Shown here: positions 2-26,059 of the stretch, piece after piece
Layout of the letters: every line of letters starts with the position of its first letter
Position numbering within the stretch: position 1 is the first letter of the stretch
From: a virus
IMG/VR virus record: IMGVR_UViG_3300027836_000009
Span: 1-64,000 of that record
Length of the DNA stretch: 64,000 nt
Strand: one strand, 5' to 3'
Position numbers and translations under genes: made by a program
The notes under the pieces: model-generated
What the model saw: only the letters and a program-made list of their open reading frames with translations
Told to the model about the DNA's origin: nothing
The model's database searches: none

Positions 2-580
2 AATACATCTCAAGGAGCTAGTTTAGTATGGAATGGAGTTACTTTTACGTTAGATACTTCTTTGCTAAATTATTCATATACAGCTATTATAACTACTATA
101 CCAGCAAGTGCAGTCCCTTCTGCAGGTAGTTTAATCGAAGTTACAGTTGGAAATTCAGTTACAAGTATTGGTACTGATGCTTTCTTACAGTGTAGCGGGT
201 TGACATCTGTAACATTTTCACCTAATTCAACACTTACAAGTATTGGTCTCAGATCGTTCGACAGTTGTTCATCATTGACAACTATAACAATTCCAAATTC
301 AGTTACAAGCATTGGTGCTTATGCGTTCTGGGCTTGTGCTGCATTGGCAACTATAACAATTCCAAATTCGGTTACAAGTATTGGTAATTTTGCATTCAGA
401 AGTTGTATTGCATTGTTAAATGTAGTAATTCCAAATTCAGTTACAAGTATTGGTGCAGATTCATTCTTGCTTTCCGGGTTGACAACTGTTACTATAGCAA
501 ATGGTCAATTAGGAATACTATCACCTAGCGCAAGTCAAGCCTTTTTTGGTGTAATAACTGTTCAAACTATTCAACCTTAA
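2..580 (+). CDS. BspA/TpLRR-type leucine-rich repeat protein, 5'-truncated by the window
   Basis: Repeats of TIPNSVTSIGxxAFxxCxxL; the frame stays open upstream of position 62 to the window edge (NTSQGASLVWNG...). Confidence 0.85.
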   Translation, partial: NTSQGASLVWNGVTFTLDTSLLNYSYTAIITTIPASAVPSAGSLIEVTVGNSVTSIGTDAFLQCSGLTSVTFSPNSTLTSIGLRSFDSCSSLTTITIPNSVTSIGAYAFWACAALATITIPNSVTSIGNFAFRSCIALLNVVIPNSVTSIGADSFLLSGLTTVTIANGQLGILSPSASQAFFGVITVQTIQP

Positions 581-740: not shown

Positions 741-767
741 AAACTATCCTTAAATTTGTGAATATAA
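741..767 (+). promoter_or_regulatory. Bipartite phage promoter, class A (RAACTA-N12/13-GWATATAA)
   Basis: AAACTA-N13-GAATATAA, one of 7 intergenic copies. Confidence 0.65.
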
Positions 768-1045: not shown

Positions 1046-2434
1046 ATGTTTGAAAAAATTGGCTTTATAGAAAATGATCCGAACAAGAAGAATATCTTGA
1101 TTACGGTAAGTCAAATGAAAACCCGCGAATATACATACGGATATGTTTACCCGCTTGTTGAAGTACTAAAAGAAAAATTCAATGTTTATTACTTTTACGA
1201 AGGTGGCCTTAAACACATTGAAGAATGTGGCTTTAAAAACGTTTACCGATTAAACAAAGGTAAGTACAATGATTTTAAGTCAGCAAATCTAAAAAGAAAA
1301 AAAGAACTTGAAACTTCTGACATATATAATCAAAACTTGATTGACTTGGAAATTGAAAAGTTCTTTAAAGATGAATACCAATTTTCGGATATCTTAATCG
1401 TTGATAATCACAACTTGATGTTACCGTTCAACCCACAAACATCACACCCAAAATTAAAGGAATTGTTTAATGATTACTTTGATAGCTTTGATGATGAAGA
1501 TCCTAGAGTTCTTGAAGAAATTGAAAGAGTTAACAATAAGTTGTTTAACCCAACTGCAAAAGGACTATCTCCACTTGCATTCCGTTATATGTATAAGAAC
1601 ATTATGTTATCCGTAATTGAATACATTAGTAAAAGTAACGATGCAATAATTCACCCACTTATCATGGACCCATCTGCTGCAATTCCTTTCTTTAAGTTTA
1701 AAGGATTGAAACATCGCTTTTGGTATTTCACTGATGACCACCGTCATTTACGAGAACTGTATGGATTCCCAATTGCCGAATTACAGCATCTTGTGTTTGA
1801 ACCTCATTGGCAAAACATTACGCCAACGAAAAAGAATCTTCTTGAAGAATTTGAAGTTAAAGAAGAAAAGATTCCTTTCTTTTTTGCGGGATCCTTGCTT
1901 AACGATAAAGGTAAACGAAAATATATCTGGAGAGATTTCTTTAAAGACTTTTCATATCCTGGTGCTAAACTCTATTTTAAAGTAAGTTTGATTTTAGGAA
2001 TGGATAAAGAATCTTTTGAGAATCTTAAATCTGATGTAATGAAACATCCAAACTTCTGTGGTGATTTTATGCCGAACGAAGAATATATGAGAGTTCTTAA
2101 AAGATGCAAGACTGCGTTCATTGCTCGTAATGTATCAGCAAATGGTGGATTCACATATCGTCATATGCAATATTTGTACTTTGGTGTTCTTCCTCTTTTT
2201 GATGACTTATATGACCCAGCCTATTTGTGGATACCAAAAGAATTTCAAGATAAGCTAACTGCAAAAAATCCTGAAGAATTACAAAAGCTAATTGAGTTTT
2301 ACGATAACAATGAATCTGAAAGATTAAAAGTTTTAAAAGATCTAAAGAAACATTTCCAAGTTGATGATTGGGTTGACAACTGGAAAGAGAAACTTGTTAA
2401 CACTGAGCTATTCAAAGATTATCTTTGGAAGTAG
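1046..2434 (+). CDS. GT-B glycosyltransferase, T4 DNA beta-glucosyltransferase-like
   Basis: C-terminal domain FFAGSL...GFTYRHMQYLYFGVLPLFDDLYDP resembles the BGT nucleotide-sugar-binding domain; DNA-modification gene context. Confidence 0.6.
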   Translation: MFEKIGFIENDPNKKNILITVSQMKTREYTYGYVYPLVEVLKEKFNVYYFYEGGLKHIEECGFKNVYRLNKGKYNDFKSANLKRKKELETSDIYNQNLIDLEIEKFFKDEYQFSDILIVDNHNLMLPFNPQTSHPKLKELFNDYFDSFDDEDPRVLEEIERVNNKLFNPTAKGLSPLAFRYMYKNIMLSVIEYISKSNDAIIHPLIMDPSAAIPFFKFKGLKHRFWYFTDDHRHLRELYGFPIAELQHLVFEPHWQNITPTKKNLLEEFEVKEEKIPFFFAGSLLNDKGKRKYIWRDFFKDFSYPGAKLYFKVSLILGMDKESFENLKSDVMKHPNFCGDFMPNEEYMRVLKRCKTAFIARNVSANGGFTYRHMQYLYFGVLPLFDDLYDPAYLWIPKEFQDKLTAKNPEELQKLIEFYDNNESERLKVLKDLKKHFQVDDWVDNWKEKLVNTELFKDYLWK

Positions 2435-2437
2435 GCA

Positions 2438-2463
2438 GAACTATTTAAGAAAAATGTATATAA
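2438..2463 (+). promoter_or_regulatory. Class A promoter
   Basis: GAACTA-N12-GTATATAA upstream of the transaldolase. Confidence 0.7.
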
Positions 2464-2486
2464 TATAAAATTCAAAATTTATAAGT

Positions 2487-3188
2487 ATGAGAGTAAAAAT
2501 CTTCGCAGACGGCGCAAACGAACAAAGTATGATTGACCGTAACAATTCAGAAATGATTTCTGGTTTAACGACAAATCCTACATTAATTCAAAAATCAGGT
2601 GTTACTGATTATTCTTCATTCATTAAAAGAATGTTACAGACAGTCAATGAAAAATCGTTTTCAGTTGAAGTTGTATCTGATGATCTTGAAGAAATGTACA
2701 CACAAGCAAAAACTATTGCTTCTTGGGGCGAAAACGTTTATGTTAAAATTCCAATCACAAACACAAAAGGTGAAACAGTTTACGATATCGTAAAAAGATT
2801 ATCTGATGAAGGAGTTAAAATAAACGTAACTGCTATGATGACAACTGAACAAGTTAATCATATCTTGCCTGCATTAGCAAATTCCCCAGCCGCATATATA
2901 TCTATATTTGCTGGCCGTATTGCTGACACTGGAATTGACCCAATGGATATTATGACAGAAACAATGACTACGTTAGGTGCTTACCCACAAGTTGAATTAA
3001 TTTGGGCATCTCCTCGTGAATTGTTAAACATTTTCCAGGCTGACTCTATCGGTTGTCATATTATTACTTGTACTGATGATATCATTAAAAAATTATCATT
3101 ACACGGTAAAGATTTAAGTGAGTATTCATTAGATACAGTTCAAATGTTTTATGATGATGCTCAAAAATTAAACTACACAATTGAATAA
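2487..3188 (+). CDS. tal: Transaldolase (small TalC-like family)
   Basis: IFADGA, GLTTNPTL, SVEV (acid-base Glu), VYVKIP (Schiff-base Lys), SIFAGRI (Phe, as in transaldolases rather than FSA). Confidence 0.92.
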   Translation: MRVKIFADGANEQSMIDRNNSEMISGLTTNPTLIQKSGVTDYSSFIKRMLQTVNEKSFSVEVVSDDLEEMYTQAKTIASWGENVYVKIPITNTKGETVYDIVKRLSDEGVKINVTAMMTTEQVNHILPALANSPAAYISIFAGRIADTGIDPMDIMTETMTTLGAYPQVELIWASPRELLNIFQADSIGCHIITCTDDIIKKLSLHGKDLSEYSLDTVQMFYDDAQKLNYTIE

Positions 3189-3191
3189 ATT

Positions 3192-4436
3192 ATGACTGAC
3201 AATTTCAATAATCCTAAAAGACTACATAACCTTTTTACTCTAAAGAAAGGCTGCAGCATCTTATGTGATATTGACGGAACTATTATCCAACATGAGAACA
3301 TTCCTGATTACTCAAAAGATATTGTTTTACTTGACGGTGCATTAGAGAAACTAGATGAATGGTATGCTGATAATGCTTATGTTGTATTAACGACAAGTAG
3401 AAATCCTGTGGATAAGGATCTGTTAGTTAAAGCTCTAGCAAAACAAAACATAAAATATGATTCATTGGTTATGGGTTTACCACCAGGACCAAGATATTTA
3501 GTAAACGATAAAAAACCTTATTCAGAAATAACTATGGCACAATCTTTTGAAGTTAAACGCGATGAAGGAATCAAAACAATTGGTCACTCATTTGCTGCAG
3601 TTAGTATTAAAGAAAATACTATCGAAAAAACATTACCTGCTGACGCAAACCAAACTCAATTAAACAAGTTTGCTTGGCAATATCAAACATTATCCGATTT
3701 GGGTAATATTGAAAACGTTAAACCTGCTATCCCACAGGTATACGAATTCTCTTCTCATAAATTCAGTATTGAGTATTTAGAAAAACATAAAGGAATCAAC
3801 CAATTTGATACTTACCAAAGAAGTGTGGTATTACCTTACGTTTTTGAATATGTAAACAATATGTACAGTATTGAAAATGAAACAATAGATTCAGAAAATC
3901 CATCTAGAGATTGGGACGAATGGTTTAAGTCTTTCATTGATGCAAAAATTTACGCAAAGAAATCTGATTTAGAAAAGTACGGTTTAGATACTTCAGTTTT
4001 TGAAGATATGAAAAACTACTTAGAAACAAATTATGAAACAATCAGACCATATTTCTTTGCAAGATATTTCCACGGAGATCTTACATACGAAAACATTTTG
4101 TTTTATAACTTTGATGTTAAGTTTATTGATTTTGATAATGATTATGTTTGGGGTCCTGTTGAACTTGACTTAGGAAAACTTACACAATCAATCATTACAA
4201 AATATGAAAGTTGGGATAACCCAGAAGAAGCAATCCAAAATGTTGAAGAAGAATTTGAAAGAGTACTTTACTTTTACACAGGGTTCGTTGGAGAACAAGC
4301 AAGGTCTAAAGCATACTTCTATTGTATCATTCACTTAATCAGAATGATCCCGTATCAAGCTCAACGTGATGTTAATCGTTGTCACATTGCTTTAGGTTGG
4401 GTTAAAGAATTATTTAACAGATTAAACAACAAATAA
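3192..4436 (+). CDS. HAD phosphatase fused to an APH/choline-kinase-like phosphotransferase
   Basis: N-terminal CDIDGT, LTTSR, NDKKP; C-terminal FHGDLTYENIL and FIDFD kinase motifs. Confidence 0.8.
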   Translation: MTDNFNNPKRLHNLFTLKKGCSILCDIDGTIIQHENIPDYSKDIVLLDGALEKLDEWYADNAYVVLTTSRNPVDKDLLVKALAKQNIKYDSLVMGLPPGPRYLVNDKKPYSEITMAQSFEVKRDEGIKTIGHSFAAVSIKENTIEKTLPADANQTQLNKFAWQYQTLSDLGNIENVKPAIPQVYEFSSHKFSIEYLEKHKGINQFDTYQRSVVLPYVFEYVNNMYSIENETIDSENPSRDWDEWFKSFIDAKIYAKKSDLEKYGLDTSVFEDMKNYLETNYETIRPYFFARYFHGDLTYENILFYNFDVKFIDFDNDYVWGPVELDLGKLTQSIITKYESWDNPEEAIQNVEEEFERVLYFYTGFVGEQARSKAYFYCIIHLIRMIPYQAQRDVNRCHIALGWVKELFNRLNNK

Positions 4437-4437
4437 C

Positions 4438-5151
4438 ATGGATGCAATAATACTAGCTGCAGGTAGGTCACAAAGATTTGGAGAAAACAAATTACTTATC
4501 CCTTTTGATTCTTTAACATTAACTGAACATTCCTTAAAGTTCTTAGCTGAAAATGGAATTACTGGTAAGATCGTTATTGTGATTAATAAAAGTGATGTTT
4601 ACATCAGCAATCGTGATAAGATCATTCAACCTGTAATGCATAGATTATTGGGTTCTCCTTATTATAGTGAAAACATTGAGTTCGTTTTCCAAAACCCTGA
4701 TGAATATGGACCTGCAGCTGCTATAAGATCGGCTGCAGGTAAAATAAAAGATGATTTTATTATTCTTTCAGGTGATAACTATTACAGTGGAAAAATTGAT
4801 ACAACATTCCCAGACGGCGCAACTGCCAAAGCTACTTTTAAATACTATCCAGATTCAGAACTTAACTTACGCCTTGCTTATGTTAACCTTGATGAAAACA
4901 AAATAATTGAGAAACCTCATAATTTTTCTAGTGGTGAATATTACTGTGGTTACATGATGTTGAAATATGAAGAATTAGAAAAAGTTAACACAATGGAAAT
5001 TTCGCCTCGTGGTGAATATGAAATAACTGACTTCTTTAATTCATCAAAAAAGAAAGCATTTGAACCGTTAAGTATTAAATGGACTGATATTACTTTTTAT
5101 GAAGATATCCCAACAGTTTTAAAGTATATTAAAGAAAACGCTAATAATTAA
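4438..5151 (+). CDS. Sugar-phosphate nucleotidyltransferase (RmlA/NTP_transferase family)
   Basis: IILAAGRSQRF, LSGDNY, IIEKP, SPRGEYEITD, WTDI. Confidence 0.9.
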   Translation: MDAIILAAGRSQRFGENKLLIPFDSLTLTEHSLKFLAENGITGKIVIVINKSDVYISNRDKIIQPVMHRLLGSPYYSENIEFVFQNPDEYGPAAAIRSAAGKIKDDFIILSGDNYYSGKIDTTFPDGATAKATFKYYPDSELNLRLAYVNLDENKIIEKPHNFSSGEYYCGYMMLKYEELEKVNTMEISPRGEYEITDFFNSSKKKAFEPLSIKWTDITFYEDIPTVLKYIKENANN

Positions 5152-5155
5152 CAAT

Positions 5156-5737
5156 ATGATACACAATTTTTACGATTGGGACGATACAATAGTTTTGACT
5201 CGTCCAGCAATTTATCTTTCTTATAGTTTTGCTTTAAAGAAAGTTGTTGACATTGATTTACCTCGTGGTGATTTTGATAAAAAACTTTACGCTAATGCTA
5301 ATGCTTATATGGCTCAATTAGGATTTACTGAAAAGACAATGCGTGAGGTAAAACGAGTTAAGAACGAAGTCTATCTTGATACTTATTGGGAAGATGTTAA
5401 AGTTCTTAAAACAGATTTTGACCCATACGAAAAACATTACATTGTTTCAAACACAACAACTGACGTAATTGAAACTTTATTGGAAAAATTTGATTTACGT
5501 CATAACTTTGATACAGTCGTAGGATCTGACGTTTATCTTGGCGTAAACCGTAAACCTGCTCCAGATTTATACAACTATGCATTCTCAAGAATTGAGAAAA
5601 ACTTTAATCCTGATAAAGATTGGGTTGTGATTCACGAGGATAGCATCTTTGGGTTAAACGCAGCACTAGCTTTTTTTGAAGATAATAAATACAAAATAAA
5701 AAACTTTAAAATTGTTTACTCTCCGCAAAATTTTTAA
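5156..5737 (+). CDS. HAD-family phosphatase/phosphomutase
   Basis: YDWDDTI, IVSN, RKPAPD, HEDS motifs. Confidence 0.8.
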   Translation: MIHNFYDWDDTIVLTRPAIYLSYSFALKKVVDIDLPRGDFDKKLYANANAYMAQLGFTEKTMREVKRVKNEVYLDTYWEDVKVLKTDFDPYEKHYIVSNTTTDVIETLLEKFDLRHNFDTVVGSDVYLGVNRKPAPDLYNYAFSRIEKNFNPDKDWVVIHEDSIFGLNAALAFFEDNKYKIKNFKIVYSPQNF

Positions 5738-5740
5738 TTA

Positions 5741-7066
5741 ATGAAAACTACAGGCCTGCGAATTGCGATCTTTCCAATGGGATCCGCAATTAAATTAAAA
5801 AAAGATAACATAAAAAGAAACGACGGTTCAATTGAGTACTATAAATCTGTATGGGCTCTAACACATAATGAAAATGTTGACCAAGTTTTAATTGTTCAAA
5901 AATCCGATTGGGATAAATTAACCGATGAAGAAAAAGCTGATCTTGATCCTCGTGGAGTTATCTTTGATGTTTATTCAGAATTAGGATTAAGAACTCCTAA
6001 TCTTTCAGGAGTTATTTCTGATGATGAATGGGAAAAGTACACTAATGTATATGAAGCATTAAAGGATTTACCTCAACCTGATTTTGGTATTGGGTTTCTT
6101 GCTCAAGGATACACTATTGTAAATATGCCAAATTTCTTATATAAGAAAACCGATCCAACAAAAAAGAATTCAGTATTAGCAATGACTGGACGCTACGCAG
6201 CTCCAATTGTGTATTACTTGAATATGTCAAAACTTCCTTACTTTGTAATTGCTACTGACCCTCGTTACTGTACTCGTAAATTGAAAAGACGTGATAGCGC
6301 AAACCGTCCGTTAGAATTTATTTCTCAGTACAATGATGTTTGTGAATTTACAGCAATCACAGAACACGATCCGTATTCACCAGAAGTTATGACACCAATT
6401 AAAATTACTTACTCAGGAATTGAGAGATTAGGATTAGTTGGTGAAAGAGCTGTTGCTCCAGATAATGAAAGAACAATTAAATTTGCGATATCTGCAATGC
6501 AATCTTCATACGGTGAAAACGCAACTAAAGATTTCCGTTTTGACGAATTAAAGAAATGGGTTCTTAACCAACCAGATTCTGAAGATTATCATATCTACGG
6601 AAGATGGACTGATTACTTTACAAAAGATCACCAACAATTTAAAGGTCTGATTCCTCACACGGAAATTGACGAAGCTTTTATCAACACAAGATATACATTA
6701 GTAATTCCTATTCGCCCAGATTGGGTTACTGGTAAATATGTTGAAATGATCCGAGTTGGATGTTTGCCATTCTTCCATCCAAAATACGATACTCAGTTTT
6801 CAACAATTCCTAAAGACCATTTCTTAAGGGTTAAAGATCCTGCTGATATGTATAAAAAAATAAAGTATCTTGATGAAAATCCTGAAGTAAGAATTAAACT
6901 TGTTAAAGAATTACAAGTTAAGTTTTTATTAGGCGTTCGTCAAGGAGATTTCTTTGCTAACATTCTTGATACTTTTTTAAAGAAACATGATTTGCCATTC
7001 AGTATCGCACCAGGCTATACTGAAGAATTAAAAAGAGTCGTTAAAAAAACAGTTAAACTATTTTAA
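5741..7066 (+). CDS. Second GT-B glycosyltransferase, DNA beta-glucosyltransferase-like
   Basis: IATDPRY, HIYGRW, TRYTLVIP...VTGKYVEMIRVGCLPFFHPKYD. Confidence 0.65.
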   Translation: MKTTGLRIAIFPMGSAIKLKKDNIKRNDGSIEYYKSVWALTHNENVDQVLIVQKSDWDKLTDEEKADLDPRGVIFDVYSELGLRTPNLSGVISDDEWEKYTNVYEALKDLPQPDFGIGFLAQGYTIVNMPNFLYKKTDPTKKNSVLAMTGRYAAPIVYYLNMSKLPYFVIATDPRYCTRKLKRRDSANRPLEFISQYNDVCEFTAITEHDPYSPEVMTPIKITYSGIERLGLVGERAVAPDNERTIKFAISAMQSSYGENATKDFRFDELKKWVLNQPDSEDYHIYGRWTDYFTKDHQQFKGLIPHTEIDEAFINTRYTLVIPIRPDWVTGKYVEMIRVGCLPFFHPKYDTQFSTIPKDHFLRVKDPADMYKKIKYLDENPEVRIKLVKELQVKFLLGVRQGDFFANILDTFLKKHDLPFSIAPGYTEELKRVVKKTVKLF

Positions 7067-8323
7067 ATGAAAAAGAAAATTAAGTATGGTGTTGTTGTTC
7101 CACTTATCGGTGGTATGACAATCGCAAATGAAAACGCAACAGGAGAGAAACCTACATTTATTTTATCTTATGAAGCATTTGCTGCAAATGACAAACATTG
7201 TGTAAACCGTTACAATGAAACTCCTTATGTGCTTGCTGACGGTGATACAAATGAAATTATGCCAACTGTTGTTAATGAAGAAACTGGAGAAGTAGAATAT
7301 GAATCTGCTTTTAGAGCAGATCTATTTGAAGAAGTTGATTTTGTTTCTGCAGTTTGCCCTTGCGCAGGTCTTTCAATGTTAAACTCAAATAACAATAAAG
7401 AAACAGCTTCTGCTCGTGGGTCTGATGCTGTTCAGAATGACTGGATGTATAAAACAGCTCGTCTTGTTCTTGAGAAAGTTAGTCCTAAAGTTTTATGGGG
7501 TGAAAATGCTCCAGGATTATATACTAACATGGGTGCTGGTGTTGTTGAAAAGTTAAGAGTAATTGGTAAAGAATATGGGTATTCTTTCTCAATGATTAAA
7601 ACTGATACGTTTTTACATGGAATTCCACAACATCGTCAAAGAACATTTTACTTCTTTTGGAAAGGCAGTGATGCTCCAATCTTAAACTATTTTGAAAAAG
7701 AATCTCCAATGTTAGGTGATTACTTGGACCAAATTCCTGAAGGCGCATCTTATATGGATAAACCGTTTATGGCTGACTTGACTGATAACAATTGGGTTAA
7801 GTTTATAAAAAGTGAAGGTTTTAGTCTTGAAGCACTTGCTGAAGATCCAAAATTAAACACAGTTTTTCAATGGATTCATGCTAAAGGTTTAAGAGATAAA
7901 GCAATTGAGTTTGGTGAAAGCATTGGTGATGAAGGAATGGTTAAGTTCTTAAATCACACAAAGAAAAAAGAAGCTGAAAACAAAGGCTGGTGGGATGGAA
8001 CTCCACTTGCATTTAAAACAGCAACAAACTCAATCATTGCTAAAAATTCTGCAATCATTCGTCCAGGTACTGAACGCGGAATTACATTACGTGAGGCAAT
8101 GTGGCTAATGGGTCTTCCTCATGATTTTGAAATGATGGGTAATGTAAACAATCATATCTGTCAAAATGTCCCTGTTAAAACAGCAACTGATTGGACATCT
8201 GAAGTTATAAGATTCTTAAACGGCGAGATTACAGAATTCGGTGGTGATTTTGTTAAACAGAATAACATTTCTAAAAAGATTGATTTTGCTGAGGCTTCAA
8301 TCAAAACAGCTGTATTGTTCTAA
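7067..8323 (+). CDS. DNA cytosine-C5 methyltransferase-like protein
   Basis: Motif IV CPCAGLS, VI GENAP, VIII PQHRQRTFYF, IX TLREAMWLMGLP, X CQNVP; motif I is atypical (VPLIGG). Confidence 0.85.
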   Translation: MKKKIKYGVVVPLIGGMTIANENATGEKPTFILSYEAFAANDKHCVNRYNETPYVLADGDTNEIMPTVVNEETGEVEYESAFRADLFEEVDFVSAVCPCAGLSMLNSNNNKETASARGSDAVQNDWMYKTARLVLEKVSPKVLWGENAPGLYTNMGAGVVEKLRVIGKEYGYSFSMIKTDTFLHGIPQHRQRTFYFFWKGSDAPILNYFEKESPMLGDYLDQIPEGASYMDKPFMADLTDNNWVKFIKSEGFSLEALAEDPKLNTVFQWIHAKGLRDKAIEFGESIGDEGMVKFLNHTKKKEAENKGWWDGTPLAFKTATNSIIAKNSAIIRPGTERGITLREAMWLMGLPHDFEMMGNVNNHICQNVPVKTATDWTSEVIRFLNGEITEFGGDFVKQNNISKKIDFAEASIKTAVLF

Positions 8324-8326
8324 ACA

Positions 8327-8353
8327 GAACTAAATACGTATTTGTGTATATAA
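8327..8353 (+). promoter_or_regulatory. Class A promoter
   Basis: GAACTA-N13-GTATATAA upstream of the dNMP kinase. Confidence 0.7.
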
Positions 8354-8365
8354 AATTTAAAGTAA

Positions 8366-8932
8366 ATGAAATTATTAATTTTTGAAGGATTGGATCGTTG
8401 TGGCAAAGATACGATTATAAATCATATCGCTGCTGATTATCCTCACTTAATTAGAGTTCATTGGGGGTTTCCGAAAGGTGAAACGAATGAAGAAAAAACA
8501 GAATATCAAGTTAAAACATTTAACGCTGAAATGTCTGTTCAAAGTAATCTTCGTCATATCTACGGCGCAAACTATTTTGAAGATGGAATTTATATCTGGA
8601 ATCGTTCACATATAGGTGAATATGTTTACGGACCAATGTATCGGGATAGCAATCCTGATACGTGGATTCCTGATCTTGAAAAAAGATATTTTGCTAATGA
8701 CCCTGATGTCTATTTAATTTATTTGCATGCTGATGTTGACTTTATATTAAAACAAGATGATGGACAATCATTTACAACTGACCGCAAGAAAAAAGTAAAA
8801 GAAATGAAGTTATTTAACGAAGCAGTTGATAACTCACTTATTAAAAACAAATTAAAAATAAAAGTAAATGACGGAAACGAATACATTTCAATTGACACCA
8901 TCTGCGGAATTATCAAAGATGCAATCTGCTAA
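8366..8932 (+). CDS. Thymidylate-kinase-like dNMP kinase
   Basis: P-loop FEGLDRCGKDT; WNRSHIGEYVYG. Confidence 0.85.
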   Translation: MKLLIFEGLDRCGKDTIINHIAADYPHLIRVHWGFPKGETNEEKTEYQVKTFNAEMSVQSNLRHIYGANYFEDGIYIWNRSHIGEYVYGPMYRDSNPDTWIPDLEKRYFANDPDVYLIYLHADVDFILKQDDGQSFTTDRKKKVKEMKLFNEAVDNSLIKNKLKIKVNDGNEYISIDTICGIIKDAIC

Positions 8933-9767
8933 CGAAGAAGTTTATCGTTTATTAAATAAAATCAATGAGGAAGGTTCTGAATCAGCTCCTCGCGGTTTAA
9001 AGGTTAGGGAATTGCATATGCATACATTAAAGTTATCTCCTAGCTTCCCTTTAATGGATTTTGAGGATCGCCCTTTTAACTTTAAATACTTTATGGGTGA
9101 AATGGCCTGGTATTTATTAAAAGACAGTAACATATCTTACATTAACAATTTCTCATCTTTCTGGAATCGCATTGCAGATCACGCAGGTAACGTTAATTCA
9201 AACTACGGTAAGTTATTATTTGGTGACCAACTTCAATGGGTTCTTGATACATTAAAAGCTGATATTAATTCAAGACAAGCAATTGCTTTTGTGAATCAAC
9301 CTAAATTCCAATATGAAGGAAATAAGGATTTTGTTTGCACAATGTATCTTAACTTTTGGGTTCGTGATAATAAACTAAACATGAAAGTTCAAATGAGATC
9401 TAACGATATCTTTTATGGTTTATCTTATGACGCACCTTTCTTTGCTTTCATTCAACAATCAGTATGGCACTGGTTAAGAAAAACATATCCTGAATTAGAA
9501 TTAGGTATGTATTATCACTCTGCGGATAACATTCACTATTATGAAAGACATTTTAATGTCGCAGAAAGCATTCAATCTACACAACCTAAAAATCCATTAT
9601 TCTTTCAACTTCGCGATCCTCTGTTCTTAATATCAAGCGGAACAATGCTGCCAACAACTGCAGGTATTAAATTTATACAAGATGTTCAAGAATTGATAAA
9701 TTCTGGTGAAACAATTACTCAAGAAGTATCTCGAGAAATATTAACTAAATACTTTTTTATTCAATAA
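8919..9767 (+). CDS. Thymidylate synthase family protein, probable dCMP hydroxymethylase-like enzyme
   Basis: SRQA, catalytic FVCT, MRSNDIFYGLSYD, NIHYYERH; likely start is ATG 8919 overlapping the kinase stop. Confidence 0.85.
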   Translation: MQSANEEVYRLLNKINEEGSESAPRGLKVRELHMHTLKLSPSFPLMDFEDRPFNFKYFMGEMAWYLLKDSNISYINNFSSFWNRIADHAGNVNSNYGKLLFGDQLQWVLDTLKADINSRQAIAFVNQPKFQYEGNKDFVCTMYLNFWVRDNKLNMKVQMRSNDIFYGLSYDAPFFAFIQQSVWHWLRKTYPELELGMYYHSADNIHYYERHFNVAESIQSTQPKNPLFFQLRDPLFLISSGTMLPTTAGIKFIQDVQELINSGETITQEVSREILTKYFFIQ

Positions 9768-9769
9768 TC

Positions 9770-10207
9770 ATGGAAAAAGAATTAACTACTAAAACGATTA
9801 AAATTGCAAGAACAAGAACTGGTGTACCTTGCTTATGGGAAAGCTTAATGAGTTTTGCCGATCTTAAAAGATCAACTGTAATACTTGATGAAAACGGGAA
9901 AGCAAAAACTGCTGTCTTTTTAAATGCTGAAAAGGAAAAGCAAGCATTAGTTCCAATTACTGAAGGAGATTTTATTTCAAAATCTTTTGAAGATAAAAAT
10001 GGAGTTGCTCTTTCATTGTTTAAAGTTTTGGAAATTTCTCCAATGAAAAACGAAGCAGTCATTGTTCCTGTTTATCGCAAGTCATCTTTTGTTAGCGAAG
10101 ATGTATACCCATCTGAGTATAAGGAAATGATCTTAAAGACTATCGCTAAATTAAATGGCGACATCAAAGTGGTTTCTTTACCACGTGAAAAAGAATATGC
10201 TGAATAA
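9770..10207 (+). CDS. Hypothetical protein
   Basis: 145-aa ORF tightly packed in the operon. Confidence 0.7.
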   Translation: MEKELTTKTIKIARTRTGVPCLWESLMSFADLKRSTVILDENGKAKTAVFLNAEKEKQALVPITEGDFISKSFEDKNGVALSLFKVLEISPMKNEAVIVPVYRKSSFVSEDVYPSEYKEMILKTIAKLNGDIKVVSLPREKEYAE

Positions 10208-11981: not shown

Positions 11982-13160
11982 ATGGCAGAAAATCGCATTT
12001 GCTTGAATATGATCGTGAAGAATGAGTCACGAATCATTGAGAGATGTATAAGTAGTGTTTATCATCTGATAGATACTTGGTGTATTGTTGACACCGGTTC
12101 CACGGACGGAACTCAAGAAATCATTAAAAAATTACTTAAAGATAAACCTGGTGAACTAATTGAAAAGCCTTGGGTAAACTTTGGTCATAACCGTAATGAA
12201 GCTTTAGAACTTGCTAAAGAATGGGGCGAATGGACATTGTTAACCGATGCCGATATGGTTCTTATAGATAACGGATTTAGTAAAGACCAATTAAATCCTG
12301 ATGTTTGTGGATATGATGTTGAACAAGAAAATGGCGGAACACGTTATTACAATTTCAGAATCTTAAATAGTAGTAAAGATTGGAAATGTATTGGTGTAAC
12401 ACACGAATATTATTCCCCTAAAGAAGGAATGAAACAACGTGGTGCACTTAATAGTATTTTCTTTAACGATGTTAGTGACGGTGGATCTAAAGGTGACAAA
12501 TTCACACGTGATATTGCTCTGCTTGAGCAAGGCTTAATTGATGAACCTGAAAATCATCGCTATATGTTTTATCTTGCACAATCATATCGTGATACTGGTG
12601 TATATGATAAAGCAATTGAGTGGTACACAAAATGTTCTGGATGTAGTACTTGGGATGAAGAAAAATTCTTTGCTGCTTACATGATTGGCTGGTGCATGTG
12701 TTCAATGGTTGAACGTGATGATAAATCATACACAATTCAACAAATAGCTGAAAAAAGTTTAGCAGCTTGGATGATGCGTCCTTGGAGAGTTGAACCGATA
12801 TTCCAATTAGCTATGGAATATAAGAAAAGACAAATGTGGCAACATGCGTATCAACTTTTAAAAGTTTGTGCAAGTACAGATTATCCATCGGGTGATTTAC
12901 TTTTTATTGCAGCTGCAATATATGAAGGAATATCAACTGATGAATATTCTATTGCCGCTTATTGGGCTGGTAAATATGATGATTCTTCTGCTGCGTGTCA
13001 ACAGCTTCTTGAAATGGGATATAACCCAGTTCATTCAGGTAGAATTCGTAAAAATCTTTGGTATTCTGAAAACGCAAAAGGAACGTATTCTCAAGAAAAT
13101 TTACAGAAATATCTTAAAGCTAAAAAGGAATCTGTTGAAAATACATATTTAGCTTTATGA
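11982..13160 (+). CDS. GT2 glycosyltransferase with TPR repeats
   Basis: CLNMIVKNE, VDTGSTDGT, DAD, GVTHE; TPR-like FYLAQSYRD...AIEWY. Confidence 0.9.
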   Translation: MAENRICLNMIVKNESRIIERCISSVYHLIDTWCIVDTGSTDGTQEIIKKLLKDKPGELIEKPWVNFGHNRNEALELAKEWGEWTLLTDADMVLIDNGFSKDQLNPDVCGYDVEQENGGTRYYNFRILNSSKDWKCIGVTHEYYSPKEGMKQRGALNSIFFNDVSDGGSKGDKFTRDIALLEQGLIDEPENHRYMFYLAQSYRDTGVYDKAIEWYTKCSGCSTWDEEKFFAAYMIGWCMCSMVERDDKSYTIQQIAEKSLAAWMMRPWRVEPIFQLAMEYKKRQMWQHAYQLLKVCASTDYPSGDLLFIAAAIYEGISTDEYSIAAYWAGKYDDSSAACQQLLEMGYNPVHSGRIRKNLWYSENAKGTYSQENLQKYLKAKKESVENTYLAL

Positions 13161-13315
13161 TAGAAACATTTAATTTTAAAGGACATGTATATTTTGTTTT
13201 ACCTACAATAGGGTTTTGGAAAAATGACTATAATGAATTCAAAGAAGGGCTTCATTATGGTGTACAATTTAATTGGTTTAATTGGCAAATAGGAATAATA
13301 TGGAAAAAGAAATAA
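13157..13315 (+). CDS. Small hypothetical protein (52 aa; not in the ORF track)
   Basis: ATGA overlap with the GT2 stop; MIETFNFKGHVYFVLPTIGFW... Confidence 0.5.
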   Translation: MIETFNFKGHVYFVLPTIGFWKNDYNEFKEGLHYGVQFNWFNWQIGIIWKKK

Positions 13316-14997
13316 CAAACGGCAGAGATACACTTATCATAACTGCTCTACAAGGATATGGGATTGACGATATCCGTCCTTGGGTTGAAAGTTTAAAAAA
13401 CACAGGATATACTGGTGGCGTTTTAGCATTTAAGTATGATGATAATAAAGAAGTTGAAGATTACTTAATTGAGAACAACATTTCAATTTATAAAGGAATC
13501 CCAAATGGTCTTAATCACGTAGCAACACAAAGGTTTGCTGATTACGCAATTACTTTAGGCAATGAAACGTTGGAAAGTGTTGAATACGTATTACATACAG
13601 ATATTCGTGATGTAATATTTCAAGAAGATCCCACAACATGGATGAAACGTGGATTGGAAAAACATCACATATTAGCAAGTGCTGAAGGCATAACTTACAA
13701 TCATGAAGATTGGAACGGTGATGGCTTACAAAAACATTTTGGTAAAGAAATGTTTGACGAACTTAAAAATTATGAAACACTTTGTTCTGGTGTGATTGCT
13801 GGAAGAAAAACTGCTATAGCAGATCTTTTCATTACAATTTTTGAAATGTCTTTTTATTCTGGTGCGCCAGATGGATTTAATGACCAGCACTTTCATAACA
13901 TTGCAGTTCGTAAAGTATTTTCTGGTATAACAAACATACCTCGTGCTGATGAATCTTGGACAGCAAATCTTGGAACACTTATTGCGATTCCTATGAATGA
14001 TCCTAATTGGTCTTCGTCTGCAAGAACACCTTATAATTCATATGAAAGATTCCGTAAAGGCACATTTGTTGAAAACATGCTTGTGTTATTGCCTAAAATG
14101 GTTGATGGAAAAGTTTGTAACCAACAAAATGAGCCATACGCAATTGTACATCAGTATGATCGTTATCAGCCTTGGAAAGACAAATTGTTAAATGAATTAG
14201 GAATTGCTTCAGAAAAAGTTGTTGATAACACAACTGTTATTACTGCTCTTTATGATTTAAAAAGGGAAAACTGGAAAGGTTTTAGCAGGCCATTCCAAGA
14301 ATATAAAAATTGGATGAGATCAATACTTTCTTTTGACTCTCCTATGGTTATTTACGTTGACCCTTCTGATGTTGAGTTTATTGAAGAAGTAAGAAAAGAT
14401 AGAGCTGATAAAACAAAAATCATACCACTTAAATTTTCTGAATTAGTTACAAACATTAAGTATGGAAAGGACATTATATCTGTTATGAGTACTAATGAAT
14501 TTTTGGAAAATCAAACTGTGCCTAATCACCCACAAATAAAGTACCCAGATTATAATATCTTAATGCACGAAAAAGTTCAGTTTGTTAAAAGAGCTACGGT
14601 TGAGAATCCGTTTAACACTGAAAACTTTATGTGGCTAGATGCTGGTGTTTATCATATGAATAACAGAGTTGACTTGATTAACAAAAAATTCCCTAAGTTA
14701 AACATTACAGATAATAAGATACATTTAATTTACATTAATGAGCCTAAAGAATCCGATCTTGAATTAGAAAAATTCTACAAAGGACATAATGTAAGAATTA
14801 TTGGAACATCATGGGGAGGCAATAAAGATGCTATTATTGAATTCGTTAATGAATACGAAAACTTACTTGATGAATCAATAAGTAAAAATCTTATGGACCA
14901 AGATCAGTCGTTCCTTACTGTATGCGCTTTAAGAAGACCTGATATATGCGAAGTACACAAAGGTAATTGGGAATCAGCATTAAATTTCTGGTCATAA
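13300..14997 (+). CDS. Two-domain glycosyltransferase (GT-A-like plus HtrL/WlaTC-like)
   Basis: LHTDIRDVIFQ, NDQ, IVHQYDR; second domain TVITALYDL, FMWLDAG, DQDQ; likely start ATG 13300. Confidence 0.75.
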   Translation: MEKEITNGRDTLIITALQGYGIDDIRPWVESLKNTGYTGGVLAFKYDDNKEVEDYLIENNISIYKGIPNGLNHVATQRFADYAITLGNETLESVEYVLHTDIRDVIFQEDPTTWMKRGLEKHHILASAEGITYNHEDWNGDGLQKHFGKEMFDELKNYETLCSGVIAGRKTAIADLFITIFEMSFYSGAPDGFNDQHFHNIAVRKVFSGITNIPRADESWTANLGTLIAIPMNDPNWSSSARTPYNSYERFRKGTFVENMLVLLPKMVDGKVCNQQNEPYAIVHQYDRYQPWKDKLLNELGIASEKVVDNTTVITALYDLKRENWKGFSRPFQEYKNWMRSILSFDSPMVIYVDPSDVEFIEEVRKDRADKTKIIPLKFSELVTNIKYGKDIISVMSTNEFLENQTVPNHPQIKYPDYNILMHEKVQFVKRATVENPFNTENFMWLDAGVYHMNNRVDLINKKFPKLNITDNKIHLIYINEPKESDLELEKFYKGHNVRIIGTSWGGNKDAIIEFVNEYENLLDESISKNLMDQDQSFLTVCALRRPDICEVHKGNWESALNFWS

Positions 14998-15028: not shown

Positions 15029-15679
15029 ATGGATAAAGAAGTAGAAAAAATTAACGAAAACTTAAGAACAGGCGTGTGGACTGATTTGTGTCAATTAATG
15101 AAAGATTATAATAGTGATAAAAGTAATATTCACAATTACACAAAAGCGTATCAAGCTTTATTTTCAGATATTAAGTTGTCAGTTGAAAATGTTTTGGAAA
15201 TAGGAATAGGCACAAACAATACTGATGTTTTGTCAAGTATGGGTCCAGGCGGGACTCCAGGTGCTTCTTTAAGAGGTTGGCGAGATTATTTTAAAAACGC
15301 TCAAATTTGGGGTTGTGATGTTGATAAAAGAATCTTATTTGAAGAAGAAAGAATAACTACCTTTTATCTTGACCAATTACAAGATGACTTAATTTCTTTC
15401 TTACCTAATGAAACAATGTTTGATGTTATCATTGACGATGGCTTACATGATCATGCTGTAAACTTTTTTGTTTTAAGAAAATTATTCAAAAGATTAAAAC
15501 CAGGAGGATATTACATAATTGAGGATTTACTAAAAGGACAACAATTAACATCCTTATTTAGCAATTGGAATCCAGAGATAATGCCTGAGTTAACAGATTA
15601 TAACTGTGTTTACTTAGATATGCCAGGCACAAGTAAGCCTGATAATGTTTTATTTGTTATAAAAAAGAATGATGAATAA
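15029..15679 (+). CDS. SAM-dependent (sugar O-)methyltransferase
   Basis: VLEIGIG, GASLRGWRDYF, FDVIIDDGLH, LKPGGYYIIED. Confidence 0.85.
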   Translation: MDKEVEKINENLRTGVWTDLCQLMKDYNSDKSNIHNYTKAYQALFSDIKLSVENVLEIGIGTNNTDVLSSMGPGGTPGASLRGWRDYFKNAQIWGCDVDKRILFEEERITTFYLDQLQDDLISFLPNETMFDVIIDDGLHDHAVNFFVLRKLFKRLKPGGYYIIEDLLKGQQLTSLFSNWNPEIMPELTDYNCVYLDMPGTSKPDNVLFVIKKNDE

Positions 15680-17093
15680 AGTTCATTGTATATCATTTAT
15701 TACGCAAGGTGAACCTTTTGACAAAGGATTACCATTAGGACATTTAAAACAAAGATTAATTAACGAATATAGTCAATGCTTTGACAAAGTAACGATTTAT
15801 ACAGTAGACGATATCCCTGAAGAATTCCGAAGAGAATATGACCCTGAGATTTTTGAAACACGGTTTAACCCAGGATACCATAATGTAGGATATGGCGCTT
15901 TTAAGCCATATCTTATATTAAAAACGATGGAAGAATCGGATTGCGATATTATTTATTGGAGAGATGGTAATATTGATAAATGCCCATATTATTTGACAGG
16001 AAAAGAATCAGCAAGAAACTTATCAATAGATATATTATACGATATAAAAACTGATATATTTGTGCCGTTTGAAAATCCTAGCTGGCTAATTGGTAACACA
16101 ACTCCTTCTAGTGTGTTTGAAAAAATATTAGGTAGCGCTGCTGATAATTACGTGCAGTACCCACAAATGAATGCTGCATTAATAATCTGTAAGAAAACTG
16201 ATTATGTAAAAAATCTGCTAGAAGAATGGCTTAGTTGGATGAAACACGATGAGTTCTTTTATAGAGAACAACCTATTAATCACCCTGGCTACAATATGAA
16301 CTGTGGTGACCAAGGAGTTTTAAATGCAATTCTTTTAAAAGAAATAAGAAATGGAAATTTACCAGAAGGCTGGCCTTTTATAGGTTATGAAGATAGACAT
16401 TTTACATTAGACAAGTTATACAAAATAGAAAATATAAAAAAAATTATGAATACTGTTACTATTAATGAACACACGTTTTTCCCTGACAAATTAAGTAAAA
16501 ATCCTGTTATTGTCGATCTTGGATGCAGTGAAGGTGGATTCTTAAGAGATTTTAAAAATCAATTTGAGTATGGCACATATATAGGTGTCGAGGCAAATCC
16601 ACTTAATTATGAAAAAATTAAAAATCTTAACGATGATAATACATTCATACTTAATACAGCAGTTTGTTCTGAACAACGCAATGACGCAACAGTATCTTTT
16701 GTTGTTGCTGTTAATGATGGATCTTTAGGTTCATTTGTGTTTGATGAAAACAGTGTATCTTTGGCAAAGCCAGGAAACACAACTGAGAGGTTTACTGTGC
16801 CTACGATAAAAATATCTGAAATTTTTGAAAAATATAACTTAGAGAAAATTGATGTATTAAAAGTTGACATTGAAGGCGCAGAATGGGAAGTATTAGAAAG
16901 TCTTGATAAAAACATATTTGACAAAATACATCAAATATCTGTAGAATTCCATGATTTTATTGACCCAACTAAAAAAGATAGAACGAAAGAAATTGTTGAA
17001 AGACTTGAGTCGTTTGGGTATAAATCAATAATCAGTGGGGCTCCGTGGTTTTATGGAACAGAACACTTTGACTGTACGTTTTATAAAGATTAA
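15669..17093 (+). CDS. Glycosyltransferase-like domain fused to an FkbM-family methyltransferase
   Basis: AFKPYLI, YWRDG, GDQGVL; C-terminal VDLGCSEG, VEANP, LKVDIEGAE, QISVEFH. Confidence 0.8.
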   Translation: MMNKVHCISFITQGEPFDKGLPLGHLKQRLINEYSQCFDKVTIYTVDDIPEEFRREYDPEIFETRFNPGYHNVGYGAFKPYLILKTMEESDCDIIYWRDGNIDKCPYYLTGKESARNLSIDILYDIKTDIFVPFENPSWLIGNTTPSSVFEKILGSAADNYVQYPQMNAALIICKKTDYVKNLLEEWLSWMKHDEFFYREQPINHPGYNMNCGDQGVLNAILLKEIRNGNLPEGWPFIGYEDRHFTLDKLYKIENIKKIMNTVTINEHTFFPDKLSKNPVIVDLGCSEGGFLRDFKNQFEYGTYIGVEANPLNYEKIKNLNDDNTFILNTAVCSEQRNDATVSFVVAVNDGSLGSFVFDENSVSLAKPGNTTERFTVPTIKISEIFEKYNLEKIDVLKVDIEGAEWEVLESLDKNIFDKIHQISVEFHDFIDPTKKDRTKEIVERLESFGYKSIISGAPWFYGTEHFDCTFYKD

Positions 17094-25859: not shown

Positions 25860-26059
25860 AATTCTTAAAGTTCTTTTTTATAACAGGAACACAAAGGTGG
25901 GGTTCATTTATGTGGCTAGGTACACATTATAGCATGACACAAACAGATTGGCATTGGGTTCTTGAAACCTCATTATGCATAGGATTAGATTTGTTGCTTG
26001 TAATAGGTGTATTTTTAGAATGGAAAGAAATTCATAAACATAAAGATTCCGAAAACTAA
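25856..26059 (+). CDS. Small membrane protein
   Basis: ATGA overlap; hydrophobic segments. Confidence 0.55.
   Translation: MKFLKFFFITGTQRWGSFMWLGTHYSMTQTDWHWVLETSLCIGLDLLLVIGVFLEWKEIHKHKDSEN

Follow-up and report, generated by a model that had tools for sequence, protein, structure and literature searches.

Which sugar does a phage put on its DNA, and on which base, when a transaldolase gene lies between the genes of two putative DNA glycosyltransferases (GTs)? The question is raised by a locus in the IMG/VR virus record IMGVR_UViG_3300027836_000009. Our analysis covers the first 64 kb (positions 1 to 64,000, hereafter the window) of this 92,113-bp record, whose CheckV completeness of ~32% indicates a phage genome of probably around 280 kb. 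The locus belongs with the cytosine hypermodification systems known from T4, RB69 and the metavirome 'contig 53', and its distinctive trait is a transaldolase-fed donor cassette between genes for GTs that resemble the T4 beta-glucosyltransferase (BGT). With moderate confidence, we read it as a locus by which a large phage hypermodifies cytosine before replication, and in which the cassette would provide the donor for heptosylated 5-hydroxymethylcytosine (5hmC).

Open reading frame calls placed nine contiguous genes, all on the + strand, at the coordinates first given in an earlier note on this DNA, and searches of Pfam, PHROG and NCBIfam assigned every one of them to the family named there. 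Together with a conserved downstream gene, orf145, they are:

1046..2434, + strand: GT-B #1, T4 BGT-like, predicted DNA glycosyltransferase (PF13524, weak; AlphaFold2 (AF2) model)
2487..3188, + strand: transaldolase (Tal) of the TIGR02134 type (PF00923, 5.9e-41; TIGR02134, 310.8 bits with a cut-off of 282)
3192..4436, + strand: HAD-kinase, predicted bifunctional protein of 414 aa with an N-terminal HAD phosphatase and a C-terminal APH-fold sugar kinase (phrog_1238; EcKL/APH)
4438..5151, + strand: predicted sugar-1-phosphate nucleotidyltransferase (NTase; PF12804, PF00483, TIGR03992; motif LAAGRSQRFG)
5156..5737, + strand: HAD_2 hydrolase (HAD2; PF13419, 1.4e-10; intact DWDDT motif)
5741..7066, + strand: GT-B #2, T4 BGT-like, predicted 5hmC-DNA glycosyltransferase (AF2 model, structure search)
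7067..8323, + strand: C5 DNA methyltransferase (MTase)-like protein of the PLIGG family (PF00145, 6e-16)
8366..8932, + strand: thymidylate-kinase (Tmk)-like nucleotide kinase, predicted 5-hydroxymethyl-dCMP (5hm-dCMP) kinase (phrog_761)
8868..9767, + strand: thymidylate synthase (TS) homologue, predicted dCMP hydroxymethylase (PF00303, 5e-22; gp42 signature)
9770..10207, + strand: orf145, conserved 145-aa protein (homologues 3' of the TS homologue in relatives)

The modified base and its glycosyltransferases

The base is indicated by the TS homologue, the true start of which is possibly the ATG at 8919. Its best match in the PDB is T4 dCMP hydroxymethylase (1b49, a chain of the 1b5e/1b5d set; 5e-17), and an alignment to T4 gp42 and Escherichia coli ThyA gave D143, C146, R166, S167, N168, D169 and D177 (ThyA numbering), the same residues as in T4 gp42 at 7/7 positions. 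This identity supports cytosine as the target, as the earlier note had proposed. According to the rules established for TS homologues, N177D marks the use of dCMP, L143D/E a product other than methyl, and D169N the 5-hydroxy-dCMP synthases (Lee et al., NAR 2026, PMC13326640). In the window, the catalytic Cys (E. coli ThyA C146) is kept (DFVCT versus DFMCT in T4), position 177 carries the Asp of cytosine specificity (GLSYD versus GFRND in T4 and GVPFN in ThyA), and the L143 column holds Asp, an acidic residue that admits water and leads to a hydroxymethyl instead of a methyl group. Since the window reads RSND and has the full gp42 signature, the predicted product is 5hm-dCMP, and neither 5-hydroxy-dCMP nor dTMP. 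The D169N exchange is seen in RB69 gp48 (RSQN); with D169 kept, 5-hydroxycytosine (5hoC) chemistry is ruled out for the window.

The Tmk-like kinase, whose gene overlaps that of the TS homologue, has the P-loop EGLDRCGKDT and is 25% identical (E 4.7e-6) to RB69 gp45, a nucleotide kinase within the RB69 cytosine-modification cluster (Lee et al., NAR 2026, PMC13326640). Both genes are also paired in the related viral loci L084, L085, L090, L094 and L131. For orf145, neither Pfam nor PHROG gave a match and a protein-cluster search was likewise without result; copies with 39-67% identity are located immediately or closely 3' of the TS homologue in L084, L085, L090 and L094, and the protein may be another nucleotide-pool enzyme.

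The earlier note had suggested comparing predicted structures of both GTs with T4 BGT, and in this comparison BGT was the top solved match for both. The AF2 model of GT-B #1 (pLDDT 89.3; 20-sequence alignment) matched T4 BGT 1bgt best (E 4.8e-7), and for GT-B #2 (pLDDT 88.5; 24-sequence alignment) PDB ranks 1-6 were all T4 BGT, with E-values from 4e-8 (4.4e-8) to 1.5e-6. Both models align to T4 BGT with template modelling (TM) scores of 0.5-0.6, generic GT-B folds following close behind, and similarity at this level is also given for the proven DNA GTs of Pyle et al. (10.1101/2023.12.21.572611). Thus, the window shares with T4 both the dCMP hydroxymethylase signature and GTs of BGT-like fold; T4, in contrast, draws on host UDP-glucose and has neither a sugar-nucleotide pathway of its own nor a C5-MTase-like partner.

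In the pathway that we propose, the TS homologue would convert dCMP to 5hm-dCMP, which the Tmk-like kinase would phosphorylate toward the triphosphate; 5hmC would then be built into DNA and, after replication, be glycosylated by the two BGT-like GT-Bs. Glycosylation of 5hmC in DNA is very probably what the locus brings about.

The sugar cassette

The donor for these GTs would be synthesized by the phage's own cassette, which is placed between their genes. The gaps across the genes for Tal, HAD-kinase, NTase, HAD2, GT-B #2 and the MTase-like protein measure only 0-4 nt, so that Tal through the MTase-like gene form one tight operon. A common promoter class, claimed earlier for positions 741, 2438 and 8327, was recovered at 743, 2440 and 8329. 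The motif ACTA-N14-15-ATATAA has six matches in the 64 kb, all on the + strand, compared to 1.04 expected, and 0/100 shuffles reached six. Three of the matches belong to the locus:

743..767, + strand: promoter-like motif ACTA-N15-ATATAA, upstream of orf55 and GT-B #1
2440..2463, + strand: promoter-like motif of the ACTA-N14-15-ATATAA class, directly 5' of tal
8329..8353, + strand: promoter-like motif of the ACTA-N14-15-ATATAA class, 5' of the kinase/TS pair

These sites, 5' of orf55/GT-B #1, tal and the kinase/TS pair, therefore define three co-regulated units: GT-B #1; Tal, HAD-kinase, NTase, HAD2, GT-B #2 and the MTase-like gene; and kinase, TS homologue and orf145. The other three copies are found at window positions 26055, 29276 and 56462, again on the + strand.

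Aligned to the Thermoplasma transaldolase 3s0c (TacTal), the Tal of the window keeps D6, T30, E60, K86, N108, T110 and F132. In the TalB/FSA literature, transaldolases are told from fructose-6-phosphate aldolases (FSA) by Glu/Phe at TacTal positions 60/132 in place of the Gln/Tyr of FSA, next to a Schiff-base Lys, which the window copy also has. The products should be ketose phosphates, because the Tal-type pair E60 and F132 is present and not the aldolase Q/Y pair. An FSA-type aldolase that makes arabinose 5-phosphate was considered as well and is ruled out for the window copy by the same two residues.

Residues 6-112 of the HAD-kinase match phrog_1238 (2.6e-9) and contain the HAD motif DIDGT, while the kinase half reads HGDLTYEN...IDFDND; DxDGT and GDxxxEN...IDxDND are invariant in 16 homologues. 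The label 'phosphoheptose isomerase', which phrog_1238 shares with RB69 gp51, is misleading: gp51 was modelled as a HAD-like phosphatase (Lee et al., PMC13326640) and DIDGT is present. The shared label suggests, without proving it, that RB69 gp51/AfhF apparently belongs to phrog_1238. Most of the 63 database homologues of the HAD-kinase are proteins of ~620 aa that begin with an NTase, i.e. NTase-HAD-kinase triple fusions; the closest ones (P0001-P0004) are 59-88% identical. Single-protein IMG/VR scans with the HAD-kinase, P0003 and P0004 gave no matches, and an alignment scan of genome contigs found no cellular relative, with patterns so narrow that this is not evidence of absence.

Homologues of the separate NTase (35-43% identity) lie beside the GT-B #2 and MTase-like genes in L091-L109 and L094. 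HAD2, which has homologues in phage G (gp310) and L094, shows weak NCBIfam matches to sugar phosphatases and YjjG-type nucleotidases alike, and sugar-phosphate phosphatase or mutase and nucleotidase are its candidate roles. In the proposed cassette pathway, Tal would yield a ketose phosphate, most likely sedoheptulose 7-phosphate; the APH-fold kinase would phosphorylate its anomeric position, the fused AfhF-like HAD domain would take off the terminal phosphate, and the NTase would form the NDP-sugar, with heptosylated 5hmC as the end product. For this scheme we infer the substrates, the nucleotide used, the sugar, its acceptor and the use of the donor by the GTs.

The closest experimental parallel is contig 53. 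Formation of mono- and di-heptosyl-5hmC depended there, with E. coli as the test host, on three components: one bifunctional enzyme with HAD-like and APH-like parts, a cytidylyltransferase and a GT-B resembling BGT (Pyle et al., 10.1101/2023.12.21.572611). Likened by the description of components, the window has the same HAD and APH enzyme, separate NTase and BGT-like GT-B, and a gene of C5-MTase type in the cluster. Two differences stand out. In contig 53, 5hmC is made after replication by a C5-MTase and a TET-like dioxygenase, whereas the window has a gp42-type TS homologue and no Tet_JBP domain was found; and the window cassette contains a transaldolase, while none is mentioned in Pyle et al. 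(10.1101/2023.12.21.572611). The C7 sugar proposed by the earlier note is plausible, since the same enzyme trio yielded heptosyl-5hmC in E. coli, and its statement that no phage base of this kind had been described is outdated by this heptosylated 5hmC (Pyle et al.). We consider it probable that the cassette feeds DNA glycosylation. Because these three components of contig 53 recur in the window, a heptose, already described on DNA, is our best guess for the cassette sugar, although a tentative one.

A second parallel is offered by the arabinosyl-5-hydroxycytosine clusters of RB69, DLP3 and HY126, which have in common with the window a TS homologue, a Tmk-like kinase, several GT-Bs, a HAD phosphatase (AfhF), and an APH-fold kinase together with an NTase (AfhE). 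In Lee et al. (PMC13326640), who cite the HY126 work, the order of AfhE and AfhF with arabinose 5-phosphate is given as kinase at C1, removal of the terminal phosphate by the HAD enzyme and activation by the NTase. A further common element is an enzyme of central metabolism as the source of the sugar phosphate. This feeder is an arabinose-5-phosphate isomerase in the RB69-type clusters and a transaldolase in the window, so a sugar other than arabinose is expected here. The base differs as well (5hoC with D169N and flavin, against D169 and the gp42 signature), NTase and kinase are fused there whereas HAD and kinase are fused in the window next to a separate NTase, and the MTase-like gene is absent from the RB69-type clusters. 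By BLAST, only the kinase and the TS homologue were detected between an RB69-type cluster and the window.

To our knowledge, the only well-known NDP-sugar pathway that starts from a dedicated transaldolase is the octose pathway of lincomycin (LmbR/LmbN/LmbP/LmbK/LmbO). In this cellular antibiotic pathway, the transaldolase step is followed by kinase, HAD phosphatase and nucleotidyltransferase steps, and the LmbN isomerase is needed. Likened by pathway description, four of these five activities are predicted in the window, and the isomerase was not found there.

The transaldolase module in other viruses and in the closest relatives

A scan of IMG/VR returned 15 viral loci with a full-length HAD-kinase homologue, in which the kinase is 28-43% identical to that of the window. 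A Tal homologue lies within ~2 kb of the HAD-kinase homologue in all 15 contigs, upstream in seven and downstream in eight, once on the opposite strand, and every sampled module-linked Tal copy matches TIGR02134. That Tal adjoins the HAD-kinase 15 times out of 15, despite the varying order and strand and the low identity, is strong evidence that Tal acts as the first enzyme of a sugar module and not as a free-standing pentose-phosphate auxiliary gene, a distinction already drawn in the earlier note. The module occurs in phages as well as in contigs that IMG/VR labels as giant-virus metagenome-assembled genomes, and full-text literature searches did not turn up any account of a viral sugar-nucleotide module headed by Tal. 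In nine of the 15 module-linked Tals (L004, L005, L011-L013, L015-L018), Gln stands at the general-base position (TacTal E60) with Phe132 kept, a combination that fits neither transaldolases (E/F) nor FSA (Q/Y).

The closest relatives of the phage are L084 (51-68% identity), L085/86, L090 and L094, which keep most of the order GT-B #1, GT-B #2, MTase-like gene, kinase, TS homologue and orf145. L084 has a GT25 gene between GT-B #1 and GT-B #2, where the window has its cassette, and 5' of GT-B #1 a small HAD and an NTase-APH fusion, i.e. the AfhE/AfhF architecture. The AfhE architecture (NTase-kinase fusion, separate HAD) is present in L084, L085, L053, L119 and L131; the NTase-APH fusion was not found in the window's record. 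As the relatives keep the backbone without Tal and with an AfhE/AfhF-like pair instead, the cassette at 2487-5737 is one sugar module exchanged for another within a conserved backbone for DNA glycosylation. The different sugar modules on this shared backbone, together with a PF11440 DNA alpha-GT in L090, point to a DNA glycosylation locus as the wider locus type. Two side observations concern these relatives: in L084, the HAD and NTase-APH genes occupy the position of a leucine-rich-repeat protein that is encoded at the start of the window, and proteins with a TROVE domain (Ro60-like) are located, as is a sigma factor of the ECF type, 5' of the modification locus (L084:372-1997, L090:764-2386).

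Three glycan genes follow ~2 kb downstream of the locus and are present too in L084 and L085, which lack Tal:

11982-13160: GT2 + TPR protein (GT2-TPR)
13282-14997: HtrL_YibB-domain protein
15669-17093: FkbM methyltransferase

Their candidate acceptors are a DNA glycan to be extended or a virion protein.

Several observations weigh against a heptose on 5hmC that stems from the cassette. The heptose of contig 53 was assigned by mass only (Pyle et al., 10.1101/2023.12.21.572611). No SIS/SIS_2 isomerase is encoded in the 92-kb record (~32% of the genome) or in two complete module-carrying viruses, so an aldoheptose would need a host enzyme; this search, which also found no arabinose-5-phosphate isomerase in the record, extends to all 92 kb the earlier remark that a SIS/GmhA isomerase is missing from the locus. 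Neighbours of other Tal modules, annotated for about ten of the 15 loci, are WavE-like, GT2, GT10, DUF5672, SDR epimerase/dehydratase and NeuB genes and genes for sugar methyltransferases, or else for nuclease, terminase and portal proteins, and tblastn with the TS and MTase-like proteins of the window found no homologue in any of the 15. In the closest relatives, Tal and HAD-kinase are absent from the whole contigs (up to 238 kb). GT-B #1 may not use the Tal-derived donor, because it is 68% identical to its orthologue at the same position in the Tal-less L084. Finally, the GT2-TPR, HtrL_YibB and FkbM proteins are possible real users of the cassette sugar. Judged by its neighbours in the other viruses, the Tal module is a portable sugar-nucleotide unit that is not DNA-specific.

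These points could be accommodated if BGT-like GTs glycosylated 5hmC with a host UDP-hexose, while the cassette sugar went to virion or other proteins or to glycans via GT2-TPR, HtrL_YibB and FkbM. The glycan genes at the other modules, the absence of TS and MTase homologues there, the kinship of GT-B #1 to an enzyme of a Tal-less phage and a GT2-TPR homologue inside the Tal glycan cluster of L005 all speak for it. However, the cassette, GT-B #2 and the MTase-like gene are packed closely into a single operon, and GT2-TPR, HtrL and FkbM are independent of Tal, as they also occur in L084 and L085 without it. Furthermore, this DNA locus houses other genes for sugar activation (AfhE/AfhF-like) in relatives, and the same trio fed a DNA GT in Pyle et al. 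(10.1101/2023.12.21.572611). We regard such a non-DNA acceptor as quite unlikely.

Another explanation keeps the phage-made donor on DNA and does without a higher-carbon sugar: the transaldolase would rebalance pentose-phosphate pools, and a hexose or pentose would be activated. Fructose 6-phosphate (F6P) is also a transaldolase product, a heptose isomerase was found neither in the record nor in the two complete module viruses, and in RB69-like phages it is arabinose 5-phosphate that enzymes of the AfhE/AfhF type activate (PMC13326640). Likewise, L078 pairs an NTase-kinase with a ribulose-phosphate 3-epimerase. Yet F6P and pentose phosphates are abundant in the host, which leaves the adjacency of Tal in 15/15 loci unexplained; transaldolase gives no precursor of arabinose or another pentose directly, and the HAD-APH architecture is the one that yielded heptose masses (Pyle et al.). 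This explanation seems improbable to us. The epimerase of L078 (10899-11597) lies beside the NTase-APH fusion, a HAD, a BGT-like GT, an MTase-like gene and a gp42-type TS homologue, as a further pentose-pathway enzyme recruited as feeder for a DNA-sugar module.

A lack of synteny of tal with the GT and TS genes in relatives had been named beforehand as a refuting outcome, and in part this is what was seen: tal is absent from the closest relatives with GT, MTase-like and TS genes. The earlier interpretation as a whole is partly supported. Its cytosine target, the BGT-like GTs and the tie of Tal to kinase, phosphatase and NTase stand, whereas the novelty of the base and the synteny of tal in relatives do not.

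With regard to the source phage, the window has a GC content of ~32%, and the proteins most similar to a structural protein at 32383-34677 come from Prevotella Lak phages and from phages of Flavobacterium, Tenacibaculum and Chryseobacterium. The contig start (window 2-580) encodes the leucine-rich-repeat protein mentioned above, which is of the BspA type (PF13306, 8e-57). These two features hint, if faintly, that the host is probably a member of the Bacteroidota. A second metagenome holds an identical copy of the locus (L165), the sole return of the metagenome scan, and megablast gave no match of the locus to GenBank phages.

The methyltransferase-like family and the meaning of the locus

A C5-MTase-like enzyme beside a TS-type enzyme that already occupies C5 poses a puzzle. 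The protein of the window has the C5-MTase motifs IV, VI and VIII (CPCAG, GENAP, QHRQR), and its nearest clusters in a protein-cluster search are viral PF00145 clusters. In 25 family sequences, PLIGG, PCA, ENxP, QxRxR and a motif X-like QNVP are invariant; PLIGG takes the place of motif I FxGxGG, which forms the S-adenosylmethionine (SAM) pocket, in 25/25, and the acidic residue of motif II varies. This phage-specific family is present on at least 496 IMG/VR contigs, with Bacillus phage G gp301, cyanophage S-TIM5 gp080 and Pseudoalteromonas phage XG4 among its members.

Its neighbourhood was counted in the best 80 loci (L084-L163) of these at least 496 contigs. A BGT-like GT homologue lies ~2.5 kb or less upstream of the MTase-like gene, often adjacent, in 38 of the 80, and in L137 and L138 an alpha-glucosyltransferase (AGT)-like GT is found directly 5' of it. 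Where these fragments include a TS homologue, it has the gp42 pattern at 7/7 positions in 41 of 41 cases, phage G gp319 included; S-TIM5 gp076 departs from the pattern at position 143 only. In the known phage clusters of C5-MTase, 5mYOX and GT (Burke 2021, Pyle 2023), a TET/JBP gene stands next to the C5-MTase, an arrangement that the window does not share. A TET/JBP dioxygenase (PF12851) was found neither in the record nor in the contigs of five relatives, all of these records being incomplete. At gp301-gp319, phage G (L003) combines an MTase-like gene and a TS homologue with the gp42 signature with two GTs that bear the annotation alpha-glucosyltransferase, an NTase and a HAD; a possible kinase (gp311), a Tmk and a dCMP deaminase are encoded there as well. 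This same gene kit suggests that the DNA of Bacillus phage G carries glycosyl-5hmC.

Candidate roles for the MTase-like protein are methylation of residual cytosines, chemistry on 5hmC and an accessory role. The first would follow if cytosine were only partly replaced and the protein were an ordinary SAM-dependent C5-MTase on residual C, with 5-methylcytosine and glycosyl-5hmC as two tiers of protection. DNA-protecting C5-MTases are common in phages, the PC, ENx, QxRxR and QNVP residues are invariant, and the 92-kb record yielded neither a dCTPase (MazG) nor a dUTPase, a gap of little weight as the record is incomplete. Against it stand the PLIGG motif in place of FxGxGG in all 25 sequences and the unconserved motif II acid, and one would not expect a free-standing protective MTase to lie so consistently just 3' of a DNA GT and close to a TS homologue of the gp42 type. 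Such two-tier protection is possible, though we think it rather unlikely. A more far-reaching proposal has two joint parts: Tal, NTase, HAD and kinase would form an undescribed, isomerase-free viral route to an NDP-ketoheptose or NDP-octose that is put on 5hmC here as a new base, and the PLIGG family would be a non-methyltransferase enzyme acting on 5hmC or glycosyl-5hmC DNA. That both parts hold together appears unlikely. In any case, current models of cytosine hypermodification leave out this MTase-like family with its altered cofactor motif, which is always found with gp42-type enzymes.

Glycosylation of phage DNA decides its sensitivity to restriction, CRISPR and type IV systems, and the donor sugar differs between phages. 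Here, one backbone of hydroxymethylase, BGT-like GTs and MTase-like protein swaps whole sugar-nucleotide modules, which makes the donor sugar a variable of the arms race. The module of Tal with kinase, phosphatase and NTase may be a new viral route to an activated higher-carbon sugar.

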